64,000 nt of DNA from Amoebophrya sp. A120 (taxonomy: Eukaryota > Protista > Dinoflagellata). Under the pieces are notes generated by a model. It saw only the letters and a program-made list of their open reading frames with translations. It made no database searches and was not told the DNA's origin. The stretch spans positions 558,001 to 622,000 of the forward strand of contig CAJINV010000020.1 in the NCBI GenBank assembly GCA_905178155.1, read 5' to 3'. This document shows, in pieces, positions 29,435 through 56,482 of the stretch. Both the position numbers and the translations under genes were made by a program. The number at the start of each line of letters is the position of its first letter. Within the stretch, counting starts at the first letter, position 1.

Positions 29435-30242
29435 CTGGATCCTACTTCAACTTCTAGGTCGTGTATGACACTTCTGACCCGACAAGCTGCCTATCGTAAA
29501 GCTCAAATAAAGCAGAAGGCGGAAGTCTGAGTTATCGTGCTCTGTAGTTGTACCACCACACCTGCTTCCGAGATCATATTAGATGTGGATTCAACGGACG
29601 CGAAGTCGAAAAAAAAAACAACTGAAACTGATTACCCTAGATGAAGTGCCTTCCCCATTTTTGGGGTAGAAATGAAGTACATGTAGTACCCTGGTGCACA
29701 AGATTTTAGCAGATGAGGCATTGTGATGTTTATGTCTTCACGCGGCCGCGGCGCTCCCAGTTGTTCATGTTCATTTTCAGCCAAGGTCAAAAGACAAGCA
29801 ACCGCCAGAGTACTTTTCTATTAGTCTTAATAGTTCTTTCATCTAGTTGTGTGTACATCATGTTGCGGCCCGATGAAGAACTACCCACATTTATCGGGGC
29901 TCTCATCTCTCCACTAGAATTCTTTCCTCGCCCACTTCTGTGGCTTAACGATCTTCACTTTTTTAGGAGCCCCACCCTGATTGTACATAAATTACCACAT
30001 GATTCTTCTTGGACATCATCACATGCAGGGTCGTGGTGGGATGTGATTTGCAGCTAGTACATCATCTTCTTCGTGGTCATTCCTTGCAGAGGGGTATTAC
30101 TTATAACACGTCTGAGGTTCATCTTGCAGCTGTGCCTTAAGTAGCACTCACATGCGGTCACTTTGCTGCCCGTTGCAGCCGTGTCGTGGTCTTCTTTCTT
30201 GGCAAAAATATTCCTGAACTTATCTCATCAAAATAAAACACA

Positions 30243-33200
30243 ATGCCGCTCGCCGACGCCCCCAGGGAGTTTAAATCTGGCACACTTGTGCTGCGCAACA
30301 AGCGAGACGAAAAGAATGGCAAGGTGGACAACTGGCCGGCGACACACGGTGTGCGCGGGTACGACTTCCTCCAGGTGTACGATAAAACGCCTTGTGTGGT
30401 GAGAATGGTGGTGAACAAACAGATATGCATTGCAAAAGTAATGTCGTACTCGTATAATATGTAAATTGCACCTATGGCTATGCAGCATGACAAATCGAAA
30501 TCTATTTCCTTTCCTGAATATATAGCATTTGAATTTTCTCCTGCTAGTGCGATACTTTTGCAACGCATACCAGACGAAGCTTCCACTCGAAGTCGGGCCA
30601 TGGCACGAGGGGAAAGGACTAAAAGGACGATCTACGTCATTGAAGGACAATATATTTAAAGAATGGGGAAGATACATAAAGAATGGTGTAGGGTTGACAA
30701 ATGGGAAATGGTCATTGGATCAACCTTCCACACTATTCCGAATGCGCAAAGAGACGCAACGGTACGTCCGAGAGAAGTTTCCACACCCGTTCCGGTTATC
30801 CTGTGCAAAAGTATCGCATTCGTATAAATGCAAGTCTTGCATTACAAATTTTTTTCTCAAGGTAAATCTGCATTACAAATTTCAATTCTCATGCTGAGGG
30901 AATTTGTCATGCATTTATACGTCGATCGCAAGAGAACTACGTGAATCGTATGGAAAGTTAAAGAGCGTAAAAGTTAAAAAGTTATGTTGTAGTTCTTGTC
31001 GTAGCGTCTTTTCGTATCTCTCAGTTCTCACTTCGGTCTACGTTGCAGAATCTATCATAAAAATTGGCTCGGTAAAAGATGTACGTGAAACCAAAATGGA
31101 AAAGAAAGCAAATTTCAATTGAGCAAACATGTTGAAATCGGTTCGTATCGTGTGCTCGTAGTCCGGAAAGGTAGTTCGTCTCGTCTCTTAGGAATTTTTT
31201 ACTTATTCACACCTCTGCCAGGTGTCAGCCCTGTGCCTACCAAATGGTAGGGGGAGGGCTGTTCTGTTTTTTGCGCTTTTTTGGGCATCATCTGTTGAAG
31301 TCTGCGATGGGAGTTTCCGCGGGTTTAGGTGAGCTAGCACCCACGGAGCTTTACCCGCTGGACCAGGATTCTCCCATGCGAGCACCTTCTTCGTTCCTCC
31401 AGGCTTTTCTCGGCGTCCTTGGTCGGACGCCCCTGTTCTTGGTTGAAGTTGGACCCCGTGTGGCGGTAGCAGCTTCTTCTTTGCCCTGCCTTAGTAGCTC
31501 GAGCCTCGTTGCACTTCGTAAACTCTGCTCTTCGTAAAAGTGAAGTCGTCTGGTGCTTTGTTGTCTTACCTTAGTACGGTAACCCCTTTCCCCGCCTGTG
31601 TAAGAAGCATTAGCTTCCCATGTCCCCTTGCGTTTCTCGGCTAAACAGTTATTCGGTTATTCTTCTTCTAATGTTTACTTCAGTTGCTTTTCATTTATCA
31701 GCTTTAGTAGGGCATGATGCCAAAAGGGACGGACTGCCCTTAGAGCTCCCATGTCATGAAGAGTGCGCTATTGCTGTGGTGGCAGTAATTAAGCGGCTCT
31801 ACATTCTTCCTTTCAAAAAATCACAGGGATTAAGTGAAAGCATTTCGTTCGTCGTACCCAAAGTCTCTCGACCTGTCGTACCGTTACACGTTTAAAGTTG
31901 CGTCATTTTTAGTACCGTGAAAATCGTAGACCGTGACAAAGGGCAACTAAAGAATTATATCTAAAAAGGACCACTGCGAACAAAGCGTTAAAGGGTAAAT
32001 TGCATTTGCCGGGTCGTACAAGCACCGACGGGTCGTATACACACCGGGTCAAAACGGGTGGTATGTAAGCCGAATGAGACGTGGATTTGGAACAACATCT
32101 ACCGCCTACGACCATACCAAGAGCAGTTTTTTCCACGACAAGTATCATCACGCCACAAATGACATCTACGGAACCACATGTGACTGCTGCGGCACAGCAT
32201 CATTTCGACGCACCGAACCAAGCACAGGACGATATTTCTAACCCCTTACCGATCCTACCTTCACCACCACCTGCACCTTATCTACATCGGGAAAGCCCGC
32301 GCTGTCTCCCTCTCACAACACAGGAGCAACCTCGGTCGACTAGGCAGTGCTCCGGAGTCCGGGCCTCAGTTTCAAATAACGGATTGAGATCTTCCTGGGC
32401 ACCGCTTGATTCTCTTCGCACGGATTGGAAAAAAGGTTCTTGCCAAGATGGCGATGGACAGGTAACAACACCTCGTCCACAACCTGCGACACGCCTACCG
32501 ATTCGCTTCTTGTCATCGGATTCACAAGTGGATCGTTGCAGCTGGAGTACAGGAAAGGAGTATTGGGCGTTCGGTTGGGGTACTCTCCGCTGGCATTACG
32601 ACTTCTACCGCGGGACGTGGCGGTACGAAGACTCGATTGATCGGGCTAACCACGAGCTACACTACTGGGAGGATGCGGGCTTTGTGGTCGAAAACGGAGA
32701 AATTCGGCCACGCTCGTAGTTCTACGTTTTACAAACTCTAGCTGGTTTACAGCTCAAAATTAGATAGAAGTGCGCTAACACTGGGCTTTAAAATGGTTTC
32801 ATCCGACATGCGACCCCAGCCTGACACTCAGCGCCAAAACCAGATTACGTCTAGCCCGAATGCTGCAGACTTCCCAGAGGTTATTAGCATTACACCTTCG
32901 TCCTCCGCATTACAGCTTCTGAAAAAACCATCCAGACCGCTGCTGCCAAACCCTCCTCGCGAAAACTTCCTCCACGCCGTGAGCAACTCGATAGTAGCTG
33001 TAGCGGAATACTGTGATGTGCAACAATTGTACACGAGCGACATCTTCGCCATTAAAACTGAGTACAAGAGCGAAGAGCTGCCGGTGGCCTGGATGGCGGA
33101 TTTCACGATACCGCTTCAGATGAAGTATGCGTCATTCAAAAAACACGTCCTCGACCCGAATGCTTGGTGCTCTGATCGCCTTAGGCCCGACGTTTTTACT

Positions 33201-36200
33201 CTCGACAGAGAGCACATGCTCCAGTGCTGTCGAGCGGCCAAGGGAAACCCGTGCAGCCTTTGCTCGTCGGCCTCCCCTGATCGTTTTCTACAAGTAAACG
33301 GCAAGCTACTAGAAGTCCGGGCAAGAGAACAAAGGTCGTGTGACGAGGCCGGTAACACTAGCCTCATCTACCTGCGCCGGTGCAGTTGCGGGTTGACGTA
33401 CGTAGGTAAGGCCCATACGGGTGCGGGGGCCGGAACGCGCTTCCACGCACACGCCAATAACGGTGAACGGGTAACGCTGGAATCCGAGGGTCGCCCGATG
33501 TACGATCATCAGAGGTTGTACTTGAGCCATGCGGTTACCACGGACATCAGTCGGAGAGGCCCGGGGCGGTGAAGTCGACTAAATATTTTCTATATTTTGC
33601 GGGATTTTTGAAAAATGAAAAGAACGGGGAGTGCGGCGCTGCCTGCGGCGCCACGGTTGGCAGGGACGCCATGTGTCCGGGCACCGCGGGGGTTTGGGCG
33701 CATTGCCTCCCGTCCGTGTGCCCGGCGGCAGTGTTTCCCCCCTGGTGTTCTCGCGTTGCCTTGCGAAAAAATTAAAATTTAAAAATTGGCAGCGTTTTGA
33801 GTGGTATTGCGTGTGCTAGGAGTTTCCCAATCCCGCAGCCTCGTGGGTTCCTCTGTGTTCATTTCCGATCGCACACACCGGGGAAGGTGTGCGTGGTGGG
33901 TTGTCCGTATTCTGCCTCCCGGGCGTGAGGTTGTTTCCAACATCGCGCTGACTTTCGTGAGTCAGTGCGATTTTGGGAAGGGATTGGGATATGTTTGAGT
34001 TGTCCGTCGGAAGGAAAGGTCGTGGGGCTTCGCGACCGACCTTCGGCAAGATCCGCGGTCGGGGTCGCGCAACGACCTTTCCTGCGGGAAAACCACCTTC
34101 CGGACCAACTCCGTTTTGATTTAGAGTCACCGGGGGGTGCATTTTCGGGAACGATTCCCGTGTTTTCGGGAATTTCGCCCGGTTTCGGGGTGGTCTGCTA
34201 AACCGTTTTCCCGCACGGTTTAGCAGGCTCATTTAGCATGCTGATTTAGCATGCGATTTAGCATGCTGATTTAGCATGCCAGATAGAGGGGTATTTAGAG
34301 CCCCCATTTAGCACCCCCATTTAGCACCCCCATTTAGAGGGGTGCATTTAGAGCCCCCATTTAGCACCCCCATTTAGAAGGGCTCGATTTAGAGCCCCCA
34401 TTTAGCACCCCCATTTAGAAGGGGTCGATTTAGAGCCCCCATTTAGCACCCCCATTTAGAGTGCCATTTAGAGCGCTTTTGGGCAGGTGCCCACCTCGTC
34501 TGCGAAATCGGCCCCATGATTTGCTTCTCCCCACCCCGCGACGCTTCTCCGGGTTTTTCCCCACCCGCAGTGCGTAGGGGGCCGCGCCGGAGTTTCTCCT
34601 ATGTCTTCTCTTCCTCGGTCCCACACCATTTGCCTCTGTGTTCCCCATTTCGTCTTTGCCTTTTTCCTTCTCGCCCCTTTTCAATTGAGGCGCCGTCCGC
34701 ATATTCCCCGGGAAGGCCGTTTTTGAAAAATCCCGCAAAATTTAGAAGCGATTTAGCAGCCACCACCGCCCCGGCCCCTCCGCCTGACGGACATCTTGTT
34801 CAGCATGGACAAAGTGGAAGCAAACCGCACGGCTACGCTTCCAGACGGCTCCACGATGTCACAAATAGATGCGTGGGAGTCGTTTTGGATAATCGTACTC
34901 CGGACGTATCTACCATGGGGTTTCAACTTAGAATTCAAGGACGTCACACATCCTTCGGCCCCTCGACGCCGCCCGAACCCCGAAGACTGCTCCAGCATGT
35001 GCCGACTTCTCTCCGAACAAGGGGACGTACTAAAAGTGCAGCGGCTACAACGTAACCTCAAGCGCTACGTGGCAGCGAAGCACGCGGGCAACCCAAACTT
35101 CTTCCCGACTGCTTTTCCTCCTTCCCGACACGGTGCAGTTGGTTCCGACCAGCATGACACCCACCAGAAGCGGTCACAGAGCGGACTCCTCGCGGACGCA
35201 TCGGGAATCCAGTGCACACAAGATGTAGAATGCACACTCCCCGGCGTGCAGTGCACGCAAGATGAGGGATTCCTACGCCCGAGCATACCGTGCCCGCAAG
35301 AGGAAGGGATTCTTTGTACGCAAGAGCGCGACGATCTGCTACCGGTTAGCTCCCATCCGTTGAAAACTGATGGCCAGTTGGTGGAGTTCTTTGTCGGCAA
35401 ACGCAAAGCACAGCGTGTAGTTTTGGAGGCCCCGGATCTGAAGCGTCGCAGTATAGTTCCTGCGGCCCATCCTCCTCGTTTAAGACCTTGCAGATTGTCT
35501 GACCGGCCTCGATTAGTAGAACTTCCAGCTACAGCGAAGACTCCGTTGCTACCAGTAGACCCGGCAGTAACTCCATCCCGCAAGAGCAGCATGGTTCAAG
35601 AACTTTTTCGCAAAAAGTTCAGTATGGTACGGGGAAGCGAAGATCGGAAAGCGGCGCAAAGCATGATTTTCACCCCGATGGCAAAAGAGTCTCCCCGCCC
35701 AGACCAGTCTAGCGCTCTAGCGGTCGCTTCTTCCACTAACCTCCTTCGCAAGCACCCAGACGAGGCATACACCACGAAACTTCCCAGCAACAGCTCCGAA
35801 GTTAAGAAGATACTTCTTGCAATAGTCTGGCTATTTTTTGCACTGGACCCCCCGCAGGACTTCGCGTCATCAGGACGGTGGCTGCCGGTGAAGTCGTGGC
35901 ATATCGGGGCTGCCAAGTTCAATACAATCTCTTGGCTCCTGAAGATTATTGCGGGCTGCAGCAAACAACTTCTCCGAGCGCTACGCCTCCACCTAACGAC
36001 GGCTTACGTGCTTCCGCAGCAGCAGTTGTTTTTGCTTCAGGAATTAGTAGAAAGCCGATTACGACTTACGAAAGTCGGTGGGGAAAAACAGTCGCGGGAC
36101 GGTAAAAAAGCTGTTATATTCTTCTACCACAACAAAGTCGTCGACGTGCTCAACTTGCGGTCCACCTTCCGCCAGGTGTTGAATGATAGATTCCTCGCAT

Positions 36201-39200
36201 TTACATACGGACCGCCCGTATGTTTAACTACATTCAACCTCCGACTCAAGGCCATCCCTCATGCATGCAGCGAGCTGAAGTGCGCGTGTGCGGATTATCG
36301 CCGCTACTTCACAGACGGCTGTACATGGGGAGGGCATCTTGCCATGCCAGCGACGGCAGACAACATACAGCTGCTGTGTGGACCGACCCTGGACTCTGTA
36401 GCGTCATCCAAGGTCGCGCTATTAATGAGACCAAAATTCCGGGTGGAGCAAAAGTTTTCGGCCACTAAACTGCTTGAACGCGTCAACATCGAAGAGCAAG
36501 AGTTGATTCAAGATGTAAGACACTTCTTCTGGTACAACACGGTGCCAGATGGTGCAGACAAGCAGGAAGAAGTGGACTGGAACACCGCTGACGGTTCTGC
36601 CGCTCCCGTTCCCGTCCCGGATGCTAATGGTAACGTGTACGACCGTGCTGCTAGCAACACTTTTGAGTGGGGCAAGTTCTCTACGGCATTCGAGATCGTT
36701 CGCAGTTTGCAACAGCTTTTTGTGTTCGGGTACTACGATAAGGCGACATCAACTACCTGGATGATGTGTAAAAGCCTTTACACGGCATTACTGATGGAGG
36801 ATTTGGGGTTAGCCGGCCGCGGGTCTTTCCCAACAGGCACCAGCACGGACTACCACCGGGCGGATTTCGTGCCGGCACCTACGGCACCCTACCAGGATCC
36901 GGCCTTGACCCAAGCTAATCCGATCCTACCTGCGCCCGCTCCTCCATCGGCGTTATCCCCGGGTAACACACCACCCCGAGATGCACTGCCAAGCGCTCAC
37001 TTGATACCAGCTTCCCAGCCTAGTCATGACCGGGGGCAGAACATCCTCCTGGACCCGCCCCGCGGCCTATTCCATGGCACTAGCACCGCGGCACCCTCCC
37101 GCTCGCGAGTTTCTGGCACGCAGTTACAGAAGCCGACCATCAAGCCACCGAGAAGTGGAGCGTCAGTAGTGGTGAGTAATTTTCGTAGTGCCGATTGTCC
37201 GTCTTCGCGGCAGCCTCGCGCGGGTAGTTCTGAAGTAGTGTCGCCTCCGATACTCGATGTCGTTCCGCCCACCTTCTTATCCCCGCAAGCGGCGCCCGGT
37301 AACAGCAGTTCCTCGTCCTCTTACGAACCCCAAGCTAATAGGGGCCTGTATCTAAAACGGAACAAGTACGGGTTGCCGGCATCATCTTCAGATAAAATCG
37401 AAGCACTAGACAGGGATCTAATAGACGAAACGAAAAAGGAACTACATGGCGTGCGGAACCTGATGCAGTTCGTGCTCCGGAAAAGCGAGAAGCTCTTGCA
37501 ACTGGGTAAAGTAAAGTCAACGGACCAGCCCCACGTTTTGTTGCAGGCGAAAATCAAGCTACATGCGGAGATAGATGCGGCCATCGAGATGGCACAAGAC
37601 GAAATGGAAAAAAGCAGGAAGCACACCAAATTACAACAGCAACTAGAACGTGCTGAAGCGGACCGGAAAGCAGTGCAGGCAGAGTTAAAGCAGTGTCTTC
37701 CGAAGTCCTCCGTACCGGTGGCGGCCTCGGTTAACACCCACCATGTCCGCCCGTTTCCCTCGGCACTGTCGGGCCGGCGGCAGTCGTTGCTGTGGAAACT
37801 CAGCACGCACGCCGGATGGAGAGTCATCTCCAGAAGCCTTTTAAAAGGAGTAAAAGGAGTGGGCTGTGCTCTAGATATGCAGCGCGCGGCTAATAGCGGT
37901 CTCGAAAAATTAGCTGTGTTCGACTTGCGGGCGGGGATTACACCTGGCATCACCTTGAAGGCGCTGGACTCGGTCCCGCAAGCCGGCAGCATCGTGGCCT
38001 TCCAGCATCAGAAACTGTATACGTCCACGGCGATTTTGTCCAAGGCCCCAATCCTACAGATGCAGGCTGGTCCAGAGAAATCACAGTGGTTGTCCCCGAT
38101 CTTCGTTTTGTCCAATGCCGCCGTGCAGATACTTTTCCGGGACGAAACGAAGAGGAACTTCTTACAATGGACCGCCGAATCAATTAACTTGGGTCCGTTC
38201 TCTGCCAAGTTAAAAGAGAACCCGCTGCCGGTCACAGTCCTCGATGCCTGGGTCAGCCGACATGAAGTCGCGGAGTTACTGCAAATGGGGATGAACCCGC
38301 ACAACGACCTAAATCCGCCCGCAAACAAAATGTCTAGTTTGCTGCTGGATGTGGACCCCCTTACTGCCTTCGAGATGTGGCTGGACGACGACACGGAGCA
38401 GGGCGAAAACCCACCGCCGGGGGACCTACTCGGGGCAGTTCCCGATCCGAACAGCAACTCCAGTCCAGATGTTCTCCAGCCGGGTCCACTGTTCGAGACG
38501 GCGGTCAACCTGCTGGACGTAGCGGCAGGGGTTGCAGAGGAGCCAGAAGATATGGATTTTCAACCGGAGCAGCAACTTTTGAATAGTATGGAAGTCGCAT
38601 CACAGCATGACTCTTCCTCACGAAATTTACCTAGCACTATTTTGGCAGCCGACGGCAAGATCAACATGGGGCGCTGGGTCGAAGGCCAACATGCTGCACT
38701 AAACATACCGTCGGGCTCTGCCGTGTCAGCCCGATCTGCCCGACCACCAGGTCCCCGCACTCCGTCACCTCGCTCAAGTACGTCTTCATCAAGTTCCGAC
38801 ACTAGCTCCAGCTCGTCTTCAACGCCGTTGTTGTCGGACTCGGAGTCGGACTGGTCACAGCAACCGCCACCGGTGGTTTCTGATCTGGCCAACTTAGCTA
38901 CGCAGATTCCAAACTTAAACTCGAAAGGAAATTGGATTCAACAGGGGGTAGACCATCGGGGTTGTAAAGTTCGACCGTTGCTACCAATTTGGCAGGCACG
39001 GCGCAATTTTTCGTTTTTAAAGTCCGAGTTTCCACCTGCTGATCAGTCGCTGCACGAAGTGTACAGGCCGACAACAGCGGGGCAGATTGATGAAATTGTC
39101 GAGCAGCTTAGCAGCTTCGCCCCGGCTCTGCATGCCCGGGTCAAGCAGAAACAAGCTTCAGCTCACCCGGCGTACTATGCAGTCATCAAGGGCCACAAGG

Positions 39201-42200
39201 CTCCGGCCTACAAGATGCGACTCATCGCAGCAGCTACGGACAAAACGGTCTTGCACGCTCCTGGTAAAGTCTTACACTTGATTCTATCGGCCGTGATGCA
39301 AGAATTCAAATCCCGGGTGTGGCCGGGAGCTTGGAGCGTCGAGAGTTCAGAAGAGGCGCTGTCCCGGGTTACCAAGGGCGGTTTCGCAGCTTTTGACGGT
39401 TATGATTTTGAAAGGTTGTACACGGGCCTCGAACACTCCTTCCTGTGCCACAACCTCCATCAGCTCAATTGCTGCGTCTTCCAGGCCGGGGGCTTCCAAT
39501 CTGTTGTCTTGGGGTACGACCGGAACCGCAAAGGCCCGAATAAAGAATTTGCTTTTCTTTCACGAGACGCTCCTACGTCCTCTTCTTGGTCTCTGTCCGA
39601 TATCGATTCCTTGGTCCGTTGGTGCTGTGCCAGTTGTTACATCGGCATCGCTGACTTGCTATTTTTGCAAGTCCGGGGGATGCCAATGGGCATTACCCCG
39701 GCCCCGCGGATGGCGGATGGCGGGTTGTCTTGGAGTGAATACGTCTTTATCACTTCTCCGGCGGGACAACAGTACCGGTTTTTGCAAATCCTTCGTTACC
39801 TCGACGATTTGCTGTCTCCTATCAGGCTGCCACTCCACCTGATTTATCCCAGAGCGTTAGCGTGCAAGCCTGAAACCCTCGGCACCGTCACGACAACCTT
39901 CTTGGACTTTTTCCTCGACGCTTCCATTCCAAAACGGTTGTTGTACTGTATGTACGACAAAACGAGAACTTTTCCTTTTTATTTGTCTAAGTTTTCCGCT
40001 GCTGCCAGTGCGGTGCACCCCGAAACGCACCAATCGGCTTTTAGTAGTGCGGTCATCAGGGCTTATAAAAGGAACTATCTAGTGGTTCACTTCCTGCGGG
40101 ATGTTGTCGAACTTCTAGTTAGGTTCACGTTGAACGGCACTTACCAAAGGTCGTTCCCGGTCAAGGCGTGCCGGCTGCTGGTGTCCCGCCACGAAATTCC
40201 AAAGTGGTTCACCACCGAAAAACTGGTGTCCACCATGGGGGATTGGATGAAGCAGATGCAGACTGAAACTCAGGCGATTCTGCACCCGTCTTGGCAACAG
40301 TTTCGGCAGAACAGTTCCGGTCCGGTTGCTCCGGCGACAGTCAGGTAAACAGTAATAAACAAGTAATCAGGACAAGGTCGAGCTTTTCCCTCTTTCGAAG
40401 ATTGAAGCACGCTTTCGAAGATTAACGCACGGTTGCAGATAGTGAACAAAACTCGCGATCTTATCCTTCGGGGAAGACAGGGTCTGAAGAAGCTCGATAA
40501 GGGTGAAAGTTGGTTTAAAGTAAAGCTTAAAGTTCAAACTACAAAGCACAAACTTGAGCTTCTACCTCCTGTAGAGTAGGCACCAGTCTAGACTAAGTAA
40601 AGTTAGCACAGAACTCGAGTAGTTCACAGTGCCAAAGGTAAAGTGTGTCTTTTGTTGACTTCCTGTTTTGTTGATGACTATCCTCGTTTTTACTTCCCAA
40701 TATTAAAGTAGATAAAGTAAAATCTTAGTAAGCAGGACAGCGTCAAACTTCTTCACAATTTTTACTGGTAGAGCCGGGAAAGGATTTGGAGGTAGGCGCC
40801 CTGCTACCAACAGGCAGCAGGTCAAAAACAAAAAAATATTCCGATAGCGAAAGACGCCACGGGAAACCTCAGGTAATCCATCCGTCGTAGATGCAATGCA
40901 GTGCTCCCGATCGTCCCCATCCTTGTTGTATTTTGTGTACGAGTCTTGGTAAACACGAATGTCACGTCCAAATAGTTCAAATTAAACTTGTTTTCACCGT
41001 ATAATTATACCTTATTACAGAAGCCAAAGAGTAAGCCATACACTTTCGTTATTATTTTTTCCTTTACACAAGCAGCTAAACACACTTTTTCAGGTTCGTT
41101 TAACTGTCCGTCCGCGAGGCCAAAGCCGCATTTTCAAGCAATTAACATTTACGAAATCACTAGTTTTATCTCCGTCTAGTTACTTCTTTTCCAGCTTTTG
41201 ACGCCTACACATTCATAATTAACTTTTTTGCGTTACGCTGAAGACATAAAGTTCACTGTGCCTCTCGTGAAGTTGGCGACAAACAACTAATAGCTTAACA
41301 CTGTACATATTTGACTATAGAACCAGGAGGAGCGTCGTTGAAGAAAACAATACAAAGCACGCTGGTCACCATTAAAGTTCTTGCCAAGGAACTAGTGTTG
41401 TCGAGGTCAATGCCGTAGAGTATCGAAATTCGCAGAGGATGGGCCGTGGCACGAAAGGGAAATAATCGCTAGTAGTCAGGATGTCGGTGGGTCGTGTAAA
41501 CTGATCTATCTTCGTCTATGATTATTATTATTGACAACCTAGCCTTCAAATAAAGAACAACGGGTACTAAATTACATCCACCGCTACGCTGTAGTAGATA
41601 AAAGCTATGGCTAGGCACCTTTTTACACAAGGTCGATACCGCGCGAAAGTATTAAGGTTTTCGGACTAAGAGATCTAGACTGGGCAGTAGCAGAAGAGCG
41701 TTATTTTTTAAGGACTAATTGCCAAAAGTTGTTTTTACACGGTCCCGTCGCCGTCTCGAGTATCGGGCATTTCGGAAGATTACGTGGCGTGGCAATCACC
41801 GCCTCCCCACAGACACCGCAGACCGGCCCCGCTGTTAGCCGAGCTTGGACCGGATCCGACGCTACTTCGAGCCCTACGTTTCCCAGAACAGTTACCCGGC
41901 AGAATCTCGCTCGACACAGCCTACACTCACGACATCCCACTTCCCTTCCACTCGCACGAATCCGGCCACGGGTGGTTCTCCGAAAGTAATTTTTACGGTA
42001 AACACCTGTTTTCAACCCCTCCGGAGGTACGTATCCGTAGGGAAGTTTTACGACAAGAACAGGCGAGGGTGGGGGCGTTTAACAAAGGACTAGCATCTCC
42101 GGACTGGTCAATCAGCTCCCCGTACCGAGATTACCAAAGCGGGGTGAAACCAGTACAAGCGCGTGCAGTTCGATTGACTACGGGTACTTCTAACCCGTTT

Positions 42201-44980
42201 TTACCGTCGTCACCAGAGAGGTTGCTAGTCCGCAGGGGTTGGTCAACCATCCAGATAGAAAAGGAGTGCTTCGGGTCCCCGTGCGCATTACGGGCAACGT
42301 CCTCGAAACAAAGAAGATAACCGCGCATCATCACTTTCTCAACACGATGGCACTTGCCCATAATAACGGGTCCATCTTCGCATTCAACCTGCAAGAGTGC
42401 CGGAGGATGCTAGCAGTGACGAACAACGCAGCTCCTGACACGCCTAGGCCACCGGTGCAGCTGCAGCCAGATTCAGCTTGCTCCTACCAATCCGCAAGAG
42501 AGTCACGGATCAGCAGCGAACGGTCGTTCGGAGAAAATGTCTGCGTGGTGTTGGATTTTGATAGGGACTTTCCTGTGCCGAACTACAACAATCCCGTGCG
42601 GTTCATCCCCAACAACCCGTTTGCTTGGGAGGGCCTTGCGGGTGCCCGCATGGACGAGGGAGTGGCGGAGCAGGATATAGTTTTACAAACGGCCCGCTCC
42701 CCGTTCTCCGATATCGAGCTGCTGGATTTTCCACCAAGTCCGCCATTTGGTCACAGCCCTTGCAGATACTTCGCCTACCTGCAACAGTTCCAAGAGGACA
42801 TGGACAACTTGCGGGCAGAACCAGAACCAGAACCGTGCAACCCCTTCCTGATGTCGCCCAGATCGCCGCTGCTTACAAATCCGTCGATCTTCCAAATCGA
42901 GCAGATCGAGCTCGATACTACTGGATCGTTGCCGTATACCCGCTACCCGAACCCCAGCCCCGAGAGCCTGAGCACATACGGCCTGTATGATCTCGACCTC
43001 CCTGTCCATCACCAGTTGGGCTCACCGCACCAGGCAACGCTGCAAATCAACTTTTCACAGGATTGCCAGCAGTTCCTGCAGTTCCATGACAACTTGGACA
43101 CCAACAACATTTTACGCCAAAACCGTATGCACTTGACGTTCTTGCAGGGTGACAATGCAGGCACGAACCCGAATCGCATTAGGGGGGACAACCAGGGGGA
43201 AAACCAGAGACGCACTTTCTCCCCATCCCCAACCCCATCGGAACTCTCACTGATGGCGGCCGGGCGCCTGTAAGGAAGAATAAATTACACGGATGCCCTT
43301 ATACCGGCTTTCCTCCACAAGCACCGGCGCGACACGACATCTTAACCGAAAGCGGCTCCATCTGCTACATCAACGCCTACACTTGAACTACTTCATCATC
43401 TACTTGTTACCATCAGTTTACAGCAAACGAACTACCACGGTATCAACCAGCAGTACAACGACACGCATATTCCGATACGACATCCAGAACGACTTCAAGT
43501 AGCATTTCTAAAACGACTTCGACCGACGAACCAAACACGACCATCATGATCAACAGCGGCATCTAATAGCATCTTCACTTTCTTCTGGTTTTCTTTTTTC
43601 ATTTTTCATTCTGAATCTGTATTGGCAATGGTAACTGCATATCTGACATCAGAACTGACAACGATAAATGCACAGTATAATGCGTACTTTCTATGTATAC
43701 TAAGGTCTTGGATATTACTGCCCAGAATGAAAAAAGAACAAAGAAAGTGATATTAGTTTCTTGGTTTTGTTCGCAGTCCTATCTATGTGGTCCTTCATTG
43801 CATGAGAGTTAACATGCTTTGAAATAACAATAAAAAGCCCTCCAGGTTGAAGAGAACTACGTGAATCGTATGGAAAGTTAAAGAGCGTAAAAGTTAAAAA
43901 GTTATGTTGTAGTTCTTGTCGTAGCGTCTTTTCGTATCTCTCAGTTCTCACTTCGGTCTACGTTGCAGAATCTATCATAAAAATTGGCTCGGTAAAAGAT
44001 GTACGTGAAACCAAAATGGAAAAGAAAGCAAATTTCAATTGAGCAAACATGTTGAAATCGGTTCGTGTCGTGTGCTCGTAGTCCGGAAAGGTAGTTCGTC
44101 TCGTCTCTTAGGAATTTTTTACTTATTCACACCTCTGCCAGGTGTCAGCCCTGTGCCTACCAAATGGTAGGGGGAGGGCTGTTCTGTTTTTTGCGCTTTT
44201 TTGGGCATCATCTGTTGAAGTCTGCGATGGGAGTTTCCGCGGGTTTAGGTGAGCTAGCACCCACGGAGCTTTACCCGCTGGACCAGGATTCTCCCATGCG
44301 AGCACCTTCTTCGTTCCTCCAGGCTTTTCTCGGCGTCCTTGGTCGGACGCCCCTGTTCTTGGTTGAAGTTGGACCCCGTGTGGCGGTAGCAGCTTCTTCT
44401 TTGCCCTGCCTTAGTAGCTCGAGCCTCGTTGCACTTCGTAAACTCTGCTCTTCGTAAAAGTGAAGTCGTCTGGTGCTTTGTTGTCTTACCTTAGTACGGT
44501 AACCCCTTTCCCCGCCTGTGTAAGAAGCATTAGCTTCCCATGTCCCCTTGCGTTTCTCGGCTAAACAGTTATTCGGTTATTCTTCTTCTAATGTTTACTT
44601 CAGTTGCTTTTCATTTATCAGTTTTAGTAGGGCATGATGCCAAAAGGGACGGACTGCCCTTAGAACTCCCATGTCATGCATTTATACGAGTGCGGTACTT
44701 TTGCAGTTCATACCGGTACCCGTTCCACGACATCACCCAGGATGAAAACTATCTGAAGGAGCAGCTCCGCGGCCAGGACCAGGACTGTTTCTACAGGCTG
44801 GGATACCACCTCCAGTACCAGTACGTGGTTTCGGCTGCGGAGGACCCGGAGCAAAACCTTGTGCAACGGTGGAGCGACTACCACGAAGTAGATGGGGGGT
44901 TTGGCCCGGGCGAGATGGTCCAGGTTCGAGATTTCGACATGTTCAGGTGGGCATTCGGGACGCGGTCCGGATGGGTATAA
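30243..44980 (+). CDS. Hypothetical protein whose second intron is 13.9 kb; exons 30243-30423, 30575-30796, 44718-44980
   Basis: Spliced frame is open: MPLADAPREF...VVNKQ|TKLPLEV...FPHPFR|YPFHDITQDEN...TRSGWV*. Confidence 0.75.
30424..30569. mobile_element. Introner element, family B
   Basis: tatgcattgcaaaagta ... tacttttgcaacgcata; repeat acaga/ccaga. Confidence 0.87.
30930..31758 (+). repeat. 5' pseudo-LTR of the Penelope-like element
   Basis: Matches 43850-44678; three substitutions seen by eye (near 31147, 31702 and 31745). Confidence 0.95.
32159..32719 (+). CDS. Possible accessory ORF upstream of the EN-RT ORF
   Basis: Co-oriented open frame, Pro-rich N-terminus and Trp/Tyr-rich C-terminus; no family recognised. 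Confidence 0.4.
   Translation: MTSTEPHVTAAAQHHFDAPNQAQDDISNPLPILPSPPPAPYLHRESPRCLPLTTQEQPRSTRQCSGVRASVSNNGLRSSWAPLDSLRTDWKKGSCQDGDGQVTTPRPQPATRLPIRFLSSDSQVDRCSWSTGKEYWAFGWGTLRWHYDFYRGTWRYEDSIDRANHELHYWEDAGFVVENGEIRPRS
32793..40348 (+). CDS. GIY-YIG endonuclease-reverse transcriptase polyprotein (~2100 aa), interrupted by MITE 33548-34786
   Basis: EN: LIYLRRCSCGLTYVGK...TRFHAH, completed after the MITE by ESFWIIVLRTYLPWGFN. CxC..GH and YDKA..MCKSLY motifs. RT: YAVIKGHK..MRLIAA, DFERLYT, QVRGMPMG, RYLDD, TFLD, YDK. Confidence 0.88.
33548..34786. mobile_element. Non-autonomous hAT-type TIR element (MITE)
   Basis: TIR cagtcggagaggcccggggcggtg ... caccgccccggcccctccgcctg; 8-bp TSD acggacat at 33540-33547 and 34787-34794. 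Confidence 0.9.
34219..34472. repeat. ATTTAG-based minisatellite inside the MITE
   Basis: Repeating atttagcatgctg, then atttagagccccc/atttagcaccccc units. Confidence 0.9.
42239..43273 (+). CDS. Possible accessory ORF downstream of the RT, inside the retroelement
   Basis: 344-codon co-oriented frame (first ATG ~42347), Pro/Gln/Asn-rich; no family recognised. Confidence 0.5.
   Translation: MVNHPDRKGVLRVPVRITGNVLETKKITAHHHFLNTMALAHNNGSIFAFNLQECRRMLAVTNNAAPDTPRPPVQLQPDSACSYQSARESRISSERSFGENVCVVLDFDRDFPVPNYNNPVRFIPNNPFAWEGLAGARMDEGVAEQDIVLQTARSPFSDIELLDFPPSPPFGHSPCRYFAYLQQFQEDMDNLRAEPEPEPCNPFLMSPRSPLLTNPSIFQIEQIELDTTGSLPYTRYPNPSPESLSTYGLYDLDLPVHHQLGSPHQATLQINFSQDCQQFLQFHDNLDTNNILRQNRMHLTFLQGDNAGTNPNRIRGDNQGENQRRTFSPSPTPSELSLMAAGRL
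43850..44678 (+). repeat. 3' pseudo-LTR of the Penelope-like element
   Basis: Direct repeat of 30930-31758 (offset 12920). Confidence 0.95.
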
Positions 44981-45534
44981 CAAATGAAAATAAATATAGG
45001 ACGCTCCATCACAGCCTCTGTTCAAGTAGAACATCAAAGCAAGGGCAAGAACTTCTGACTCTTGTTAATTGAGATTGAAAGTAAAATTATCCAAAAACAC
45101 TTGCCTTCTTGTCCATCTTCATCCTTGCTTCTTCGGGTTCTAGGCTACTACATTTTTCTGATCTTCATGATGATGATTTGTACCAAAATTTACAACCAAA
45201 AAAGCTGTCGGACAGCGAGTACCAAATCGTGGAATTGTATGAAAACGCCGAACGCTATCACAATCGTGTGTCATAGCGATCGCATTCCGAATAGACTGAG
45301 ATGAGAAAGCGTCCCCTTGAATGTGGTCAGTTTTATTTCATGCCTGCATGAAGAACATGAAGATCAACACATTACTTGTGTGCCTCGGTGTGACGCGTTG
45401 AGCAAAAACTTGTACCGCAGAAGATTGCTGCACTTCTACTTATAGCCGTGTCTTTATGTTTGTGAATGTGATGCAAAGTTGCGCCGCAATGTGAATAAAC
45501 TAACAGTGGTAGCGTCTATTGTCGTTGCGATAAA

Positions 45535-46272
45535 GTGGCTATTCAAGTGTGGTGCTCCGAGAAGCGCGATTGGATTCCCTGCGGCCGCGACTACATCCGT
45601 CATGACTCCGACTTGTGCGCCGACGGTAGTATTCTCGACTGGGTCACAAAAAATCCGAAGATGAACGAAAAAACAAAAAGCCAAAACAGCAGTACGTCAG
45701 CATCTTCATCCTCATCTTTTTCTACAACTGCTTCAAGAAGTGCTGGTGCTTCAGTTCTTCACAACAAGAACTCTTCTGGTCCACCTCCTGCTCGTCCTCA
45801 CGGTTCACAGGAGGCCGCAGTTGTAGAACCTGCTTCCAGTTCAAGTTCTTCTACTTCTTCCTTTTCGACATCTTCTCCGTCGCAGAAGGAGCTGATGAGG
45901 AAGCTGATGAGGTCGCTGTACGAAAGCCCGCGACTGGTCACGAAACTCGAGGAAAAGTTTGAGAAGCTGAAGGCTGCTGAGGCGGCCGGAGGGGGGCAGG
46001 AGCAACATTTGTACAAGGGCTGGTCTGTCCGCCTGATGGACCACGTGATCAAGCAGTACAAAAAAGAGAAGCCGCGGGACTACCAAATGGCGACAGCAGC
46101 GGAAAACCTATACAAGCACTGGAGACACCACCCAGGCGCCCGGGCAGAGGTCGAGGCCGCGGTCGCGAAGAAGGAAAGTTTGCGCATCGCCGGGACGACG
46201 TTCTCTTTCGAACAGTGCCAATTTGTACTGCGCGAAATCGACAAGAAGGAGGGAAAAATGTTGGAGAACTAG
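45535..46272 (+). CDS. Hypothetical protein, Ser-rich linker then helical charged C-terminus; start uncertain
   Basis: 245-codon ORF with GC3-rich codon usage like neighbouring genes. Confidence 0.6.
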   Translation: MAIQVWCSEKRDWIPCGRDYIRHDSDLCADGSILDWVTKNPKMNEKTKSQNSSTSASSSSSFSTTASRSAGASVLHNKNSSGPPPARPHGSQEAAVVEPASSSSSSTSSFSTSSPSQKELMRKLMRSLYESPRLVTKLEEKFEKLKAAEAAGGGQEQHLYKGWSVRLMDHVIKQYKKEKPRDYQMATAAENLYKHWRHHPGARAEVEAAVAKKESLRIAGTTFSFEQCQFVLREIDKKEGKMLEN

Positions 46273-47020
46273 TGTGATGTATGCCTAATTCCATCCCTAT
46301 GGTTTTATCCCTTTGCCAAAAAAAAAAACTACATTTATTAATCAGTGCCTTTGTTCTTCTACGCTAGTTTTGTCGCTTTTTTTTGTACATCTTTTTGTCC
46401 TCGCCGGAATACGAATAGGAATTCATTTTCTCCGACTTGCAGACGGCGCTGCATATTGTTTGCAATGTACGTGTCATGTAGATCTAGATTGTTCTTCGTC
46501 GAATACCGATATCACCGTCCCGATGATATACTTATTCCAGAATAGCGGAACAGTAACGACAAAAAGACCCATCAAGTTTGAAGGCGATTTTTGGGATCTA
46601 GTTCGCAGTCTCAGCACACGTCAGCCAGAACTCCAGTGACGACCACCAGCAACTGCTAGATGGCCTGCAACAGTTCAAAAAATAGTTGTTCCCAGGACCC
46701 GTTGAAGGTGGTTATCGTTCAACAGAAACAAAGGAAAAAAGATCCAGTTTTATTTCGCTTTTAGAATAAAACGTTTCTTCGTCTTCTTGCAGCACTGAAA
46801 GTCGTGGGTGTTTTTAGAAGTGTTCTCAGACGTCGTGTGTAGCTTCCTCACATCTGATCAGATCCGCACCGGAGGCTCCATCCGATAGTGTTTTCGCATC
46901 GCTACTCGTTCATTACGACTGCGAAGCTAGGTCTTGGTCTATCGGAGTTGTAGTAGCTGCAGCTACAACCAGTTTTCTTGTTCGCGACTCCACTCTCAAT
47001 TATCTTTATCATTGAACAAG

Positions 47021-54600: not shown

Positions 54601-56482
54601 GGGTGCTCCCGATAAAACTTGTCATGCGCCCCTTGGAAACTGAGACTCCAACTGCCATCGATTTTGTGCATCGCAAATTTTCCGACTTTGACAATTTTGA
54701 TTCTGACACTTCCATAGCCGTGGCTTTTTCGCCGGCGGAAACCTGCCCAGACGGAAGCTCCGAAAAACCGACGGAGCTGAGCTCCTCCTGCACCCACGTG
54801 ACGGTCTATGCGAAGGTTATATGCATTGCAAAAGCATCGCACTCGTCGTCGTCGCTTGATTTGTAGTAGTGGTGCAGGAGCATGACAAATCTGGCTTTCA
54901 ACTTGAATCTGCATGACAAGCTCGAGTTCAGCTTTTGCGGTGAATAATTGCTGAACCGGAGCAAGACGGAAACGACCGCGGAGTACTCCATGATCCAAAC
55001 GACGTTCATTGTCTTTCTCCTTTATGCAATGCAAAAGCATTGTACTAGTACAAATCGCATTTACAAATTTTCTCAAGAAGAAAAATGGAATTTGTAATGC
55101 TGTTTTACCTTTGGAGGAAGATTTGTCATGCATATTTGCTGCAATTAGTACGAGTACGATACTGTTGCACAGCATATCCTCGGCATTGGGGCGATGATGT
55201 TCTCGAAAGACACCCAGCAACTGGTCATTTCCCCGATCGAGAAGATGGTGAACATAGTGAAACAACTCGCCGATGTATTCAAGAAAAAAACGTTGTTAGT
55301 GTAAATTTGTGATGCTCAACATGCAAGATGATTGCTTCTGTCATGCTTGGCATGCGTCGCAGGGTCCATTAAAGGCCTTTTTCACGTACTATCTGCGCAT
55401 GACAGGTTTTTGCTGTCATGTCAGACAAACTTGCAATGCTGTTCCTCCAAAAAAGTTACACCTACAATGTTTTTTTCTTTGATACGATGACCCCTTGTCC
55501 AAGCCGAGCACGCAATCTGGCGGCTACATGGATGACGGGGAAGACCACACCTCCGGAGCTGCACATGCCGCTGCGGCGCAGAAGAAGCAGCAGTCGTCCG
55601 GGAATTCCCAGCTTGAAACTAACATGCTGGAGACGACGATCCTGAAGATCGGAGGGCTCCTCCAGGTCGGGTTCGGGGAGGCGGGCGCGCAGATCATAGG
55701 GAAAAACATGAGCAGCCAGGATGGGGAACTCAACATCCTGATTCCGGGACGGATATGCAGATTGCAAGAGCATCGCTTAATCGTACTGTACGTAGAGTTT
55801 GCATCATCTTCACAGACGTTTGTGAATAGGAAAGCTACGGAATTTGTGATGCGGAATCGCGTATAAAGAGCACATTTGTCTTGCCAGAGCGCACAATCCA
55901 ATTTATATATAAAACTACCAATGCGCTACTTTTGCAATGCATAGCGGAAGATCTACGGCATTTTTGGTTTTTGCTTCATCCGCGAATTCACCGACACGAC
56001 CGAGTGCTTGCTGGAGGAGGTGATGGTGTTCGTCTATCCTCTGTGCAAAAGTAGTGTATAGGTGCTAATTGGAATTTTTGAAGGACAGCATGACAGATCT
56101 GGTTTCCTTCGTTTTTTCAGAATTACAAATCGAATTTTTCCTACTTTTGAAAAATTGTGATGTTGCAGCTCGCAGTAGTACCCGAGACAACTTTTACTTT
56201 TGCAATGCATATCGTGAACAAGATCGCCCGCATCGTCCACATCTGCGTTCACGAGTGGGCGGGCGCGGCGAACAAAAACATCGGGGACTCCTTTTTGTTA
56301 ACCTGGATCGTGAACGATCTCGAGGAGCAGAAACAGATGGCGCGGTACGGCTACGACAAGAACGAAAAGATGCAGGACTTGAGCGACAAAGCCTTGATTT
56401 CCTTCGTCAAAGTCATGGCGGAACTCCGACGAGCCTCCGACCTACGCGCCTACACCAGCCACCCCAAGATTCAGCAGAAGTT
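51668..56482 (+). CDS. Ion-channel-type (AC-alpha-like) class III nucleotidyl cyclase, 3'-partial
   Basis: Spliced motifs ALYGDD, FFFWLD, RAGRASRAGTRAGRIVRLIRLVRLLR (S4), PIEKMV, KIGGLLQVGFGEAGAQII, IPGRK..IFGFC, ANKNIGD. Nine complete introners and GT-AG introns 52588-52757 and 53860-54018. Remainder lies beyond the insertion starting at 56483. Confidence 0.88.
51836..52088. mobile_element. Introner element, family A
   Basis: tatgcattgcaaatatgtcggggtctgg ... ccagaccaagacacatttgcaatgcata; repeat gaacc/caaca. Confidence 0.87.
52944..53154. mobile_element. Introner element, family E, splitting the S4 helix
   Basis: tatcccacgaaaaaagtgttacagttacacatt ... aatgtgtaactgtaacacttttttcttcccata; direct repeat gttcg. 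Confidence 0.92.
54062..54317. mobile_element. Introner element, family A
   Basis: tatcaaatgtaaaagtgtctgggtctggaa ... ttccagacccagacatttttacatttgata; direct repeat ctgct. Confidence 0.92.
54399..54716. mobile_element. Introner element, family D
   Basis: tatggatgagtcaggatcgaaatcg ... gattctgacacttccata; repeat gacgt/gccgt. Confidence 0.9.
54820..54946. mobile_element. Introner element, family B (decayed)
   Basis: tatgcattgcaaaagc ... gcttttgcggtgaata; flanks ggtta/attgc; frame restored by removing element + 5 nt. Confidence 0.72.
55023..55176. mobile_element. Introner element, family B
   Basis: tatgcaatgcaaaagcattgtac ... gtacgatactgttgcacagcata; repeat tcctt/tcctc. Confidence 0.88.
55276..55484. 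mobile_element. Introner element, family E
   Basis: tattcaagaaaaaaacgttgt ... acaatgtttttttctttgata; direct repeat cgatg. Confidence 0.9.
55754..55943. mobile_element. Introner element, family B (diverged)
   Basis: tatgcagattgcaagagcatcgc ... gcgctacttttgcaatgcata; repeat acgga/gcgga. Confidence 0.85.
56035..56211. mobile_element. Introner element, family B (diverged)
   Basis: tatcctctgtgcaaaagta ... tacttttgcaatgcata; repeat tcgtc/tcgtg. Confidence 0.85.

Follow-up and report, generated by a model that had tools for sequence, protein, structure and literature searches.

Amoebophrya is a parasitic syndinian dinoflagellate. The introners of its strain A120 have been described as carrying inverted repeats of 8-20 nt or more at both intron ends and a 3-5-nt direct repeat over the borders, with termini that read TAT, seven less-conserved bases and at least three A; their splice sites are non-canonical, and their removal has been validated with RNA (Farhat 2021, PMC7789003). 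The same report describes tens of thousands of non-GT-AG introns in Amoebophrya, detected no U1 small nuclear RNA and treats their removal as an open question; its analysis was confined to introns of 40-1,000 nt, mapping was capped at 10 kb, and its hairpin model was drawn for short elements. A120 introners have since been assigned to long terminal repeat (LTR), non-LTR and terminal inverted repeat (TIR) origins, including a TIR-flanked 'family 38' with retroelement-like open reading frames (ORFs) (Gozashti et al. 2025, PMC12130899). Here we describe intron 2 of a host gene in a 64,000-nucleotide stretch of the A120 genome (contig CAJINV010000020.1, positions 558,001 to 622,000 of the forward strand; hereafter the window, in whose own coordinates all positions are given). 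RNA-derived contigs lack 13,921 nt at the introner borders. We consider it probable that this intron is a 149-nt introner, copy L, holding a 13.8-kb Penelope-like retroelement that itself holds a 1.2-kb TIR element, and that removal is directed by the introner termini alone.

The host gene corresponds to a public Amoebophrya sp. A120 'unnamed protein product' of 475 residues (P0001), which the translation of exon 3 matches at 99% over its whole length. Five exons in the window account for 475/475 of its residues (tblastn and an exact check of the coding sequence, CDS), all on the + strand. Exon 1 (30243..30423) begins with the ATG at 30243 and has a border ambiguous by 4 nt (CAGA), as given by tblastn, the CDS check and the RNA-like joint 30419>30571. 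Exon 2 (30575..30796) ends ...HPFR, its last 5 nt (30792-30796, ccggt) being the left copy of the introner target duplication, and exon 3 (44718..44974) begins YPFHD... with the right ccggt copy (44713-44717) directly upstream. P0001 reads ...EKFPHPFR|YPFHDITQ... at this point, and the public gene model thus spans the 13,921 bases between exons 2 and 3; the in-frame PFR|YPF join claimed in the first-pass annotation is borne out over the whole protein. That annotation had placed the exon after the join at 44718-44980. Its start stands and its end is 44974, with the TAA at 44978-44980 lying inside intron 3 (44975..45204, GT-AG). The gene extends further than had been supposed, with two more exons matching the P0001 CDS, exon 4 (45205..45237) and exon 5 with the stop codon (45538..46272). 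Intron 1 (30424..30574, 151 nt) consists of another introner, copy F (30424-30569), and one copy of a 5-nt repeat; its flanking repeat is ACAGA/CCAGA, 4/5 alike, and a GT-AG reading is impossible. A GT-AG model of intron 1 at 30375-30573 was rejected, as both the RNA joint and P0001 disagree with it.

We then examined two public runs, X3 and X5, which stem from one sample of one study, are kept as contigs and are classed as RNA by the tool's own guess ('RNA?'). We take both as RNA because each of the four introns is joined in them and the 13-kb element has almost no depth. A contig of 825 nt in X3 and one of 775 nt in X5 cover, with 0 mismatches, 30078-30419 (X3) or 30128-30419 (X5), 30571-30791 and 44713-44974; both join 30419 to 30571 (151 nt skipped) and 30791 to 44713 (13,921 nt skipped). 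A cDNA across the exon 2-exon 3 joint would read ...CCGTTCCGGTACCCG..., and the spliced transcript that the first-pass annotation had foreseen is largely borne out by these public RNA-like contigs, which carry the exact joint. Each joint is ambiguous by exactly the shared part of its direct repeat, 4 letters for intron 1 and 5 (ccggt) for intron 2. Intron 2 accordingly has six equivalent cuts (CC..TA, CG..AC, GG..CC, GT..CG, TT..GG and TA..GT), none of which is GT-AG, confirming the non-canonical borders that had been proposed. A GT-AG reading with GT at 30795 and AG at 44705, which adds 9 nt, was also tried and rejected, its three extra codons being absent from the RNA joint and from P0001.

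Every depth bin of X3 and X5 between 31094 and 44221 stood at 0, apart from values of 0.49 and 0.51 over the inner TIR element that come from an overlapping contig of another locus (loose end at 33770). For the GT-AG intron 3, a 289-nt contig (44945-45233) carries the retained form at depth 3.5 versus 18.7 spliced in X3 and 7.1 versus 36.5 in X5; no retained form of the two introner introns was found among the contigs listed for these runs. The spliced contig is unbroken at the exon 2 border and broken at the end of exon 3, which mildly suggests that little unspliced intron 2 RNA is present.

By its TAT-N7-AAAA termini and its 5-nt direct repeat, copy L is an introner of the kind published for A120. 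From 30797, where it opens with TATCCTGTGCAAAAGTATCG..., the interval runs on and finishes ...CGGTACTTTTGCAGTTCATA at 44712 and is flanked by ccggt at 30792-30796 and 44713-44717, the duplication that had been claimed for it. In the terminus-motif scan its termini TATCCTGTGCAAAAG and, reverse-complemented, TATGAACTGCAAAAG read TAT, seven bases and at least three A, and its inverted arms (30804-30839 and 44670-44705) are 36 nt long and 86% complementary. The left part (30797..30921, + strand, 125 nt, with left TIR TATCCTGTGCAAAAGTATCG...) was delimited by family alignment, TIR pairing and the motif scan. The right end lies on the + strand within 44672..44712, where a right duplication copy (44672-44688) is followed by the last 24 nt of copy L (44689-44712); the rejoined halves make 149 nt. 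Aligned with six other copies, the left half tracks the family to ...ATGCATTTATACG and then diverges, and the right half rejoins it at ATGCATTTATACGAGTGCGG...; in this alignment the two halves complement exactly and overlap in the duplicated letters only. Since 3 matches to the TIR pattern were found where 100 shuffles led us to expect 0.00, and since the halves complement exactly, chance does not account for the copy L pattern.

The ends of both introner introns can pair strongly. Pairing between the outermost 40 nt on either side reaches -45.7 kcal/mol (z -10.6 versus shuffles) in intron 2 and -30.5 kcal/mol (z -7.1) in intron 1, while the GT-AG intron 3 has no comparable pairing (-8.8 kcal/mol, z -1.5). 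The left introner repeat also pairs locally, and more weakly (-19.9), with the retained left duplication copy.

The junctions between introner and retroelement are marked by a 17-nt string, tgtcatgcatttatacg, at 30905-30921 and 44672-44688. The string stands at both sites, as had been claimed; its reading as a 17-nt duplication holds in part, its first 7 letters being also the last 7 of the internal pseudo-LTR copy (31752-31758), where they are followed by the unit's first bases. Because 7 of the 17 letters also end the pseudo-LTR, the target duplication is 10 to 17 nt long, and the duplication proper may be the 10 nt catttatacg (left core 30912-30921). The insertion point lies inside the right inverted repeat of the introner, at the target TTTGTCATG|CATTTATACG, which is not a microsatellite. 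The full 29-nt right repeat (44677-44705) again adjoins exon 3, and the right introner TIR is complete there because the target was duplicated. The retroelement would have entered this repeat by target-primed reverse transcription, the 7-nt match TGTCATG between the element's 3' end and the target having annealed and 10 nt having been duplicated; this duplication would then have rebuilt the right repeat next to exon 3.

The retroelement lies on the + strand, in the orientation of the host gene. It is preceded by an 8-nt filler (30922..30929, tcgatcgc) that is absent both from the introner family and upstream of the 3' pseudo-LTR. There follow a 5' pseudo-LTR (30930..31758, 829 nt), which is the tail of a 5'-truncated tandem copy and stops exactly at the unit start, the retroelement body (31759..43849) and a 3' pseudo-LTR (43850..44678, 829 nt). 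Direct comparison confirmed the divergence reported for the pseudo-LTRs, 3/829 positions (99.64% identical; 31147/44067, 31702/44622 and 31745/44665). With its 3' pseudo-LTR the unit measures 12,920 nt, as given by the repeat spacing, or 11,673 nt minus the inner element and its duplication. Within a single-copy contig, 31923 and 31954 read T in the DNA runs X1 and X2 and A in the window, and are probably residual consensus errors of the assembly.

Judged by its sequence, this retroelement is Penelope-like, with an N-terminal GIY-YIG endonuclease and a C-terminal reverse transcriptase (RT) encoded in a single frame of 2,119 codons that nothing but the inner element interrupts. Two open frames of 276 codons (32742-33572) and 1,863 codons (34757-40348) are split by the inner element, and removal of that element with one duplication copy yields a single stop-free frame of 2,119 codons. 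The first part of the ORF (32742..33547, + strand, first ATG at 32793) holds the N-terminal half of GIY-YIG (..LIYLRRCSCGLTYVGKA..RFHAH..). The second part (34787..40348, + strand) holds the rest of GIY-YIG (E..WI, GFN), followed by CxC, DKA, a low-complexity stretch and RT, and ends with TAA at 40346-40348. The conserved Y, YVG, R, H, E and N positions of GIY-YIG are all present in the read-through frame, which aligns to the GIY-YIG region of relatives across the break (9 relatives; best domain E 1.7e-7). C765-x-C767 aligns with a CxC invariant in 14/14 relatives, YDKAT aligns with the relatives' IDKAS (the DKA motif), and the RT part carries YDFERLY, GMPMG, YLDD and FLD.

When the last 563 residues of the ORF were searched exhaustively with HMMER, 414 relatives passed E<=1e-3; 90 of these passed E<=1e-10, and 4 passed E<=1e-30. 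Twenty long relatives were sampled: an N-terminal GIY-YIG (PF01541) was present in 15, and RVT_1 lay near the C-terminus in 10, only 1 of them above the Pfam cut-off; three had no family at all and one had UCH only. Three of the 20 (P0016, P0052 and P0065) have a C-terminal UCH domain after the RT, which is unusual for a Penelope-like protein. In PDB, a profile of 22 family members matched the GIY-YIG domain of I-TevI at E 1.8e-4 and the RT of a group II intron maturase at E 2.1e-4. The RT piece on its own had no match in PDB, and in the word-index search it had one weak match, P0002, itself without a Pfam family. Pfam at E<=0.01 gave no family for the ORF pieces or for 213-codon and 359-codon frames, and at E<=10 these and the host protein gave only two chance-level rows. 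Rfam at E<=1 over 29500-46500 gave 0 matches, with no hammerhead ribozyme among them.

Two parts of the retroelement stand out for their length. Between DKA and RT lie about 700 proline/serine-rich low-complexity residues (36800-39700; ORF residues ~955-1660) through which the frame is open throughout; in relatives of 900-1,000 residues DKA and RT are nearly adjacent. Downstream of the ORF is a 3.5-kb stretch (40349..43849, + strand), at single-copy depth in a 9,553-nt DNA contig; a 359-codon open frame within it (42194-43273) has no Pfam family and no ESM Atlas relative.

The innermost layer is a non-autonomous TIR element of 1,239 nt (33548..34786, no strand assigned; ends CAGTCGGAG.../...CTCCGCCTG) that splits the GIY-YIG endonuclease domain. 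Its termini begin CAGTCGGAGAGGCCCGGGGCGG... and form TIRs of 58-69 nt, 81% alike; it has internal 13/41-nt tandem repeats, and the perfect 8-bp duplication acggacat, located exactly as had been claimed, flanks it at 33540-33547 and 34787-34794. DNA contigs over the element have about 2-2.6x single-copy depth and some are mismatched, and we conclude from both that it has further copies. The first-pass annotation had called it a hAT miniature inverted-repeat transposable element (MITE). The TIRs and the 8-bp duplication are present as described; the label 'hAT', which rests on these two features, is unproven. Duplications of 8 bp are also made by several other superfamilies besides hAT. With hAT-type MITEs the element shares the 8-bp duplication, the TIRs, the non-coding interior and the subterminal short repeats, and the part of Farhat 2021 (PMC7789003) drawn on here reports no transposase in A120. 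The proposed order of nesting, gene, introner, retroelement and TIR element, is upheld by three insertions, each with its own duplication.

To place the filled site in genomic DNA, we used runs X1 and X2, which share one sample, probably that of the assembly itself. The flanks lie in contigs at 30000-30824 (depth 45 in X1 and 22.5 in X2) and 44683-46400 (42.5 and 26), and the retroelement in contigs at 31715-33576 (38.4 and 18.9) and 34758-44310 (41.9 and 20.7); a collapsed pseudo-LTR contig at 44281-44651 has about twice the single-copy depth (91.6 and 47.8). Since its depth is close to that of the flanks, there is a single copy of the retroelement, carried by most or all of the genomes in the sample. 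Its linkage to the introner rests on the Nanopore-guided published assembly, in which Illumina scaffolds were ordered along Nanopore contigs, together with the logic of the duplications.

Several points weigh against our interpretation. The RNA support comes from two runs of one sample and study, as contigs whose RNA nature was guessed, and the public gene model is not independent of it, having been made with transcriptomes that may include these very data. Pairing potential belongs to any TIR element and does not imply that pairing drives removal. In the DNA, none of the contigs listed bridges the introner/retroelement junctions, the flanks ending at 30824 and resuming at 44683, and the retroelement/flank depth ratio of 0.85-0.99 in X1 and 0.73-0.92 in X2 would accommodate an empty allele in a minority of genomes. 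In principle the joint 30898>44690 seen in DNA, with a shorter side of 24 letters and single-copy depth, could be such an empty site; more simply it is a paralogous introner copy, as the flank depth is not doubled.

If such an allele existed, or if the RNA came from a slightly different culture stock, the spliced messenger RNA could derive from it while the filled allele stayed unspliced. The RNA and DNA runs are in fact different samples and studies, and both the ratio of 0.73 in X2 and the joint with its short side fit this account. It is hard to reconcile with X1, where the retroelement (41.9) is about as deep as the flanks (42.5 and 45) and where an allele at the joint's depth of 39.6 would double them. 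Read-through from exon 2 into the introner is also rare, as the contig unbroken at that border indicates, and the 3/829 pseudo-LTR differences would make the insertion much older than a laboratory culture. We regard an empty allele as an unlikely source of the joint.

The contigs are blind to whether the exons were joined in cis or in trans. Exons 1-2 and 3-5 could be made as two RNAs, one ending in the retroelement and the other starting from a promoter in the 3' pseudo-LTR, and be trans-joined once the termini, which form a strong duplex, had paired. In Penelope-like elements, transcription can start within a pseudo-LTR, as described for Chlamys-3_cRei and Penelope (PMC8557442). At this locus no RNA contig begins within the 3' pseudo-LTR or extends over it, which is weak evidence against such a start, and we found no precedent in the portion of Farhat 2021 (PMC7789003) drawn on here. 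Joining in cis needs fewer assumptions, and we hold trans joining to be very unlikely.

A further account places the deletion in the complementary DNA (cDNA), with the reverse transcriptase jumping the hairpin base between the ccggt copies while the RNA keeps the insert. A short direct repeat around a strong inverted repeat is a classic setting for template switching; intron 2 has this layout, and all six of its possible borders are non-canonical. Such an artefact would leave a coding problem, because the 475-residue frame exists only in the joined form and a retained form stops at 30895-30897. The joined form is moreover the sole assembled path at the border in both runs, the enzyme is unlikely to clear a 13.8-kb loop quantitatively when the poly(A) RNA exceeds 15 kb, and tens of thousands of such introns have been validated by RNA-seq and used in gene models (Farhat 2021, PMC7789003). 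An artefact of this kind is highly improbable. A misassembly that placed a retroelement from elsewhere between the introner halves is barely credible: the listed short-read contigs do break within the introner on both sides, and Illumina scaffolds were ordered on Nanopore contigs, but a misjoin would not yield a 10-17-nt introner duplication at both ends or exactly complementary halves, the body is single-copy and the pseudo-LTR at twice that depth as the structure predicts, and the window contains no N.

We thus favor cis removal of the filled introner. The pre-mRNA would be transcribed through all 13.9 kb, across the sense-oriented retroelement; the two 29-nt termini would meet by long-range pairing or end-specific recognition, and removal would then proceed as for a 154-nt intron. 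At this locus neither a short loop nor the introner interior is needed for removal. Another element in the window (7510-8334), which shares the termini and has an unrelated interior, leads to the same conclusion. The locus cannot separate pairing from protein recognition of the ends, and it is from one locus and from contigs that we infer removal to depend on the ends only.

Here an introner has grown about 90-fold, from 154 to 13,921 nt, and its interior has been replaced by foreign sequence with the letters of the RNA-like joint unchanged, its termini being preserved because the target duplication rebuilt one of them. This natural experiment argues against models in which removal requires a short loop, sequence from the introner interior or closeness of the two ends during transcription, and it offers a defined substrate for end-recognition models. 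The locus exceeds both size cut-offs of the published survey, which were 1 kb in its analysis and 10 kb in its mapping, and similar cases may be missed genome-wide. A bolder generalization would hold that introner removal is set solely by the two termini over at least 13.9 kb, with inserts spliced away too; that introners are cost-free safe harbours for retroelements in genes; that composites moved by TIRs explain the A120 introners with DNA-transposon ends and retroelement genes; and that the inner element may be spliced from the retroelement transcript, leaving the 2,119-codon frame usable. We put this forward as a tentative and, taken whole, rather doubtful proposal.

Copy L belongs to a family that recurs in the window. 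BLAST with its left part found full-length relatives at ~980-1124, 10110-10265, 10509-10667, 11405-11549 and 55023-55176, and a further full-length copy is the intron 1 of the same host gene (30424-30569). The terminus-motif scan of the 64-kb window gave 26 hits forming 10 end pairs, and in 8 of these the 5-nt repeats at the two sides are identical or differ by 1 letter. Among 7 pairs examined, the flanking repeats are perfect in 4 and match at 4/5 in 3, and those of the pair 7510-8334 are perfect too; the pairs 54820-54946 and 56037-56211 are without a flanking repeat and may be mispaired. With the insert excised, the frame at the site is open in 6/7 introner copies versus 49.6% of 2,000 random excisions, a comparison that is uninformative. 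The element at 7510-8334 (825 nt) has the introner ends TATCCTGTGCAAAAGTATCG... and ...CGATACTTTTGCAACTCATA and, as its perfect 5-nt repeat, GCCGC; its interior is GC-rich (66% GC) and unrelated, so that the same termini carry different cargo. Copies are clustered, three within 1.5 kb (10110-11549) and three or four within 1.4 kb (54820-56211), and these clusters fit the published finding of many introners per single gene. RNA and DNA contigs from other loci carry the same introner ends. An RNA contig of another locus matches the last 38 nt of copy L (44675-44712) with 0 mismatch and then continues into a different flank; very close copies thus exist elsewhere, which hints at recent introner activity.

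In the host gene itself, intron 4 (45238..45537, + strand, 300 nt) is non-canonical. It can be read as TA..TG, GT..GT or TG..AG (2 ambiguous letters) and begins TAT; its terminal pairing is weak (-20.8 kcal/mol, z -2.2), and it may be an older or different introner. The host protein has no Pfam family at E<=0.01, P0001 is its sole match in the word-index protein library, where no orthologue was found, and ESM Atlas gave no usable neighbour; the host gene is an orphan.

Outside the dinoflagellates, a possible lead is offered by the non-conventional introns of euglenids, which have variable non-GT-AG borders and ends able to pair and bring exons together. These belong to another lineage and, to our knowledge, are not known as copies of TIR transposons. 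Closer at hand, copy L shares with the A120 introners of Farhat 2021 (PMC7789003) the inverted repeats, the direct repeat, TAT-N7-AAA, non-canonical borders, membership of a multi-copy family and removal seen in RNA, and differs from those described there in its 13,921 nt, which stem from nested cargo. In the literature we found no description of a nested, still-spliced introner and none of Penelope-like elements in Amoebophrya, although the supplements of the key papers may list this intron or this element.

The retroelement resembles the Naiad and Chlamys elements (Craig et al. 2021, PMC8557442), with which it shares, as far as that report is drawn on here, an N-terminal GIY-YIG, CxC, DKA and a C-terminal RT, as well as partial-tandem pseudo-LTRs, an extra short tail on one side and the lack of a canonical hammerhead ribozyme. 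It differs in size, its unit being about 11.7 kb long where Chlamys elements measure 3.3-8.2 kb and Naiad elements 3.4-4.4 kb, and in having about 700 extra residues from DKA to RT and the 3.5-kb stretch downstream of the ORF. The microsatellite insertion bias of Naiad and Chlamys is not seen here, where there is one insertion and where the bias is a tendency rather than a rule. The words alveolate and dinoflagellate do not occur in the text of PMC8557442, whereas the host of the present retroelement is an alveolate. The likeness is one of motifs and domain layout, no clade being assigned, and the locus places an unusually large Penelope-like element with an N-terminal endonuclease in an alveolate.

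The introners of Gozashti et al. (PMC12130899) come from the same strain and likewise have retroelement-type coding between DNA-transposon-like inverted repeats within introns. Their five classes (TIR, LTR, non-LTR, helitron and crypton), as given in the portion of that study used here, do not include Penelope-like elements, and their families are multi-copy and read as single unusual transposons, whereas at this locus each layer is marked off by a duplication of its own and the retroelement is single-copy. Speculatively, nesting could be one source of such composite introners. Introners and long introns derived from transposable elements are already published for A120, and to these the locus adds a nested case.

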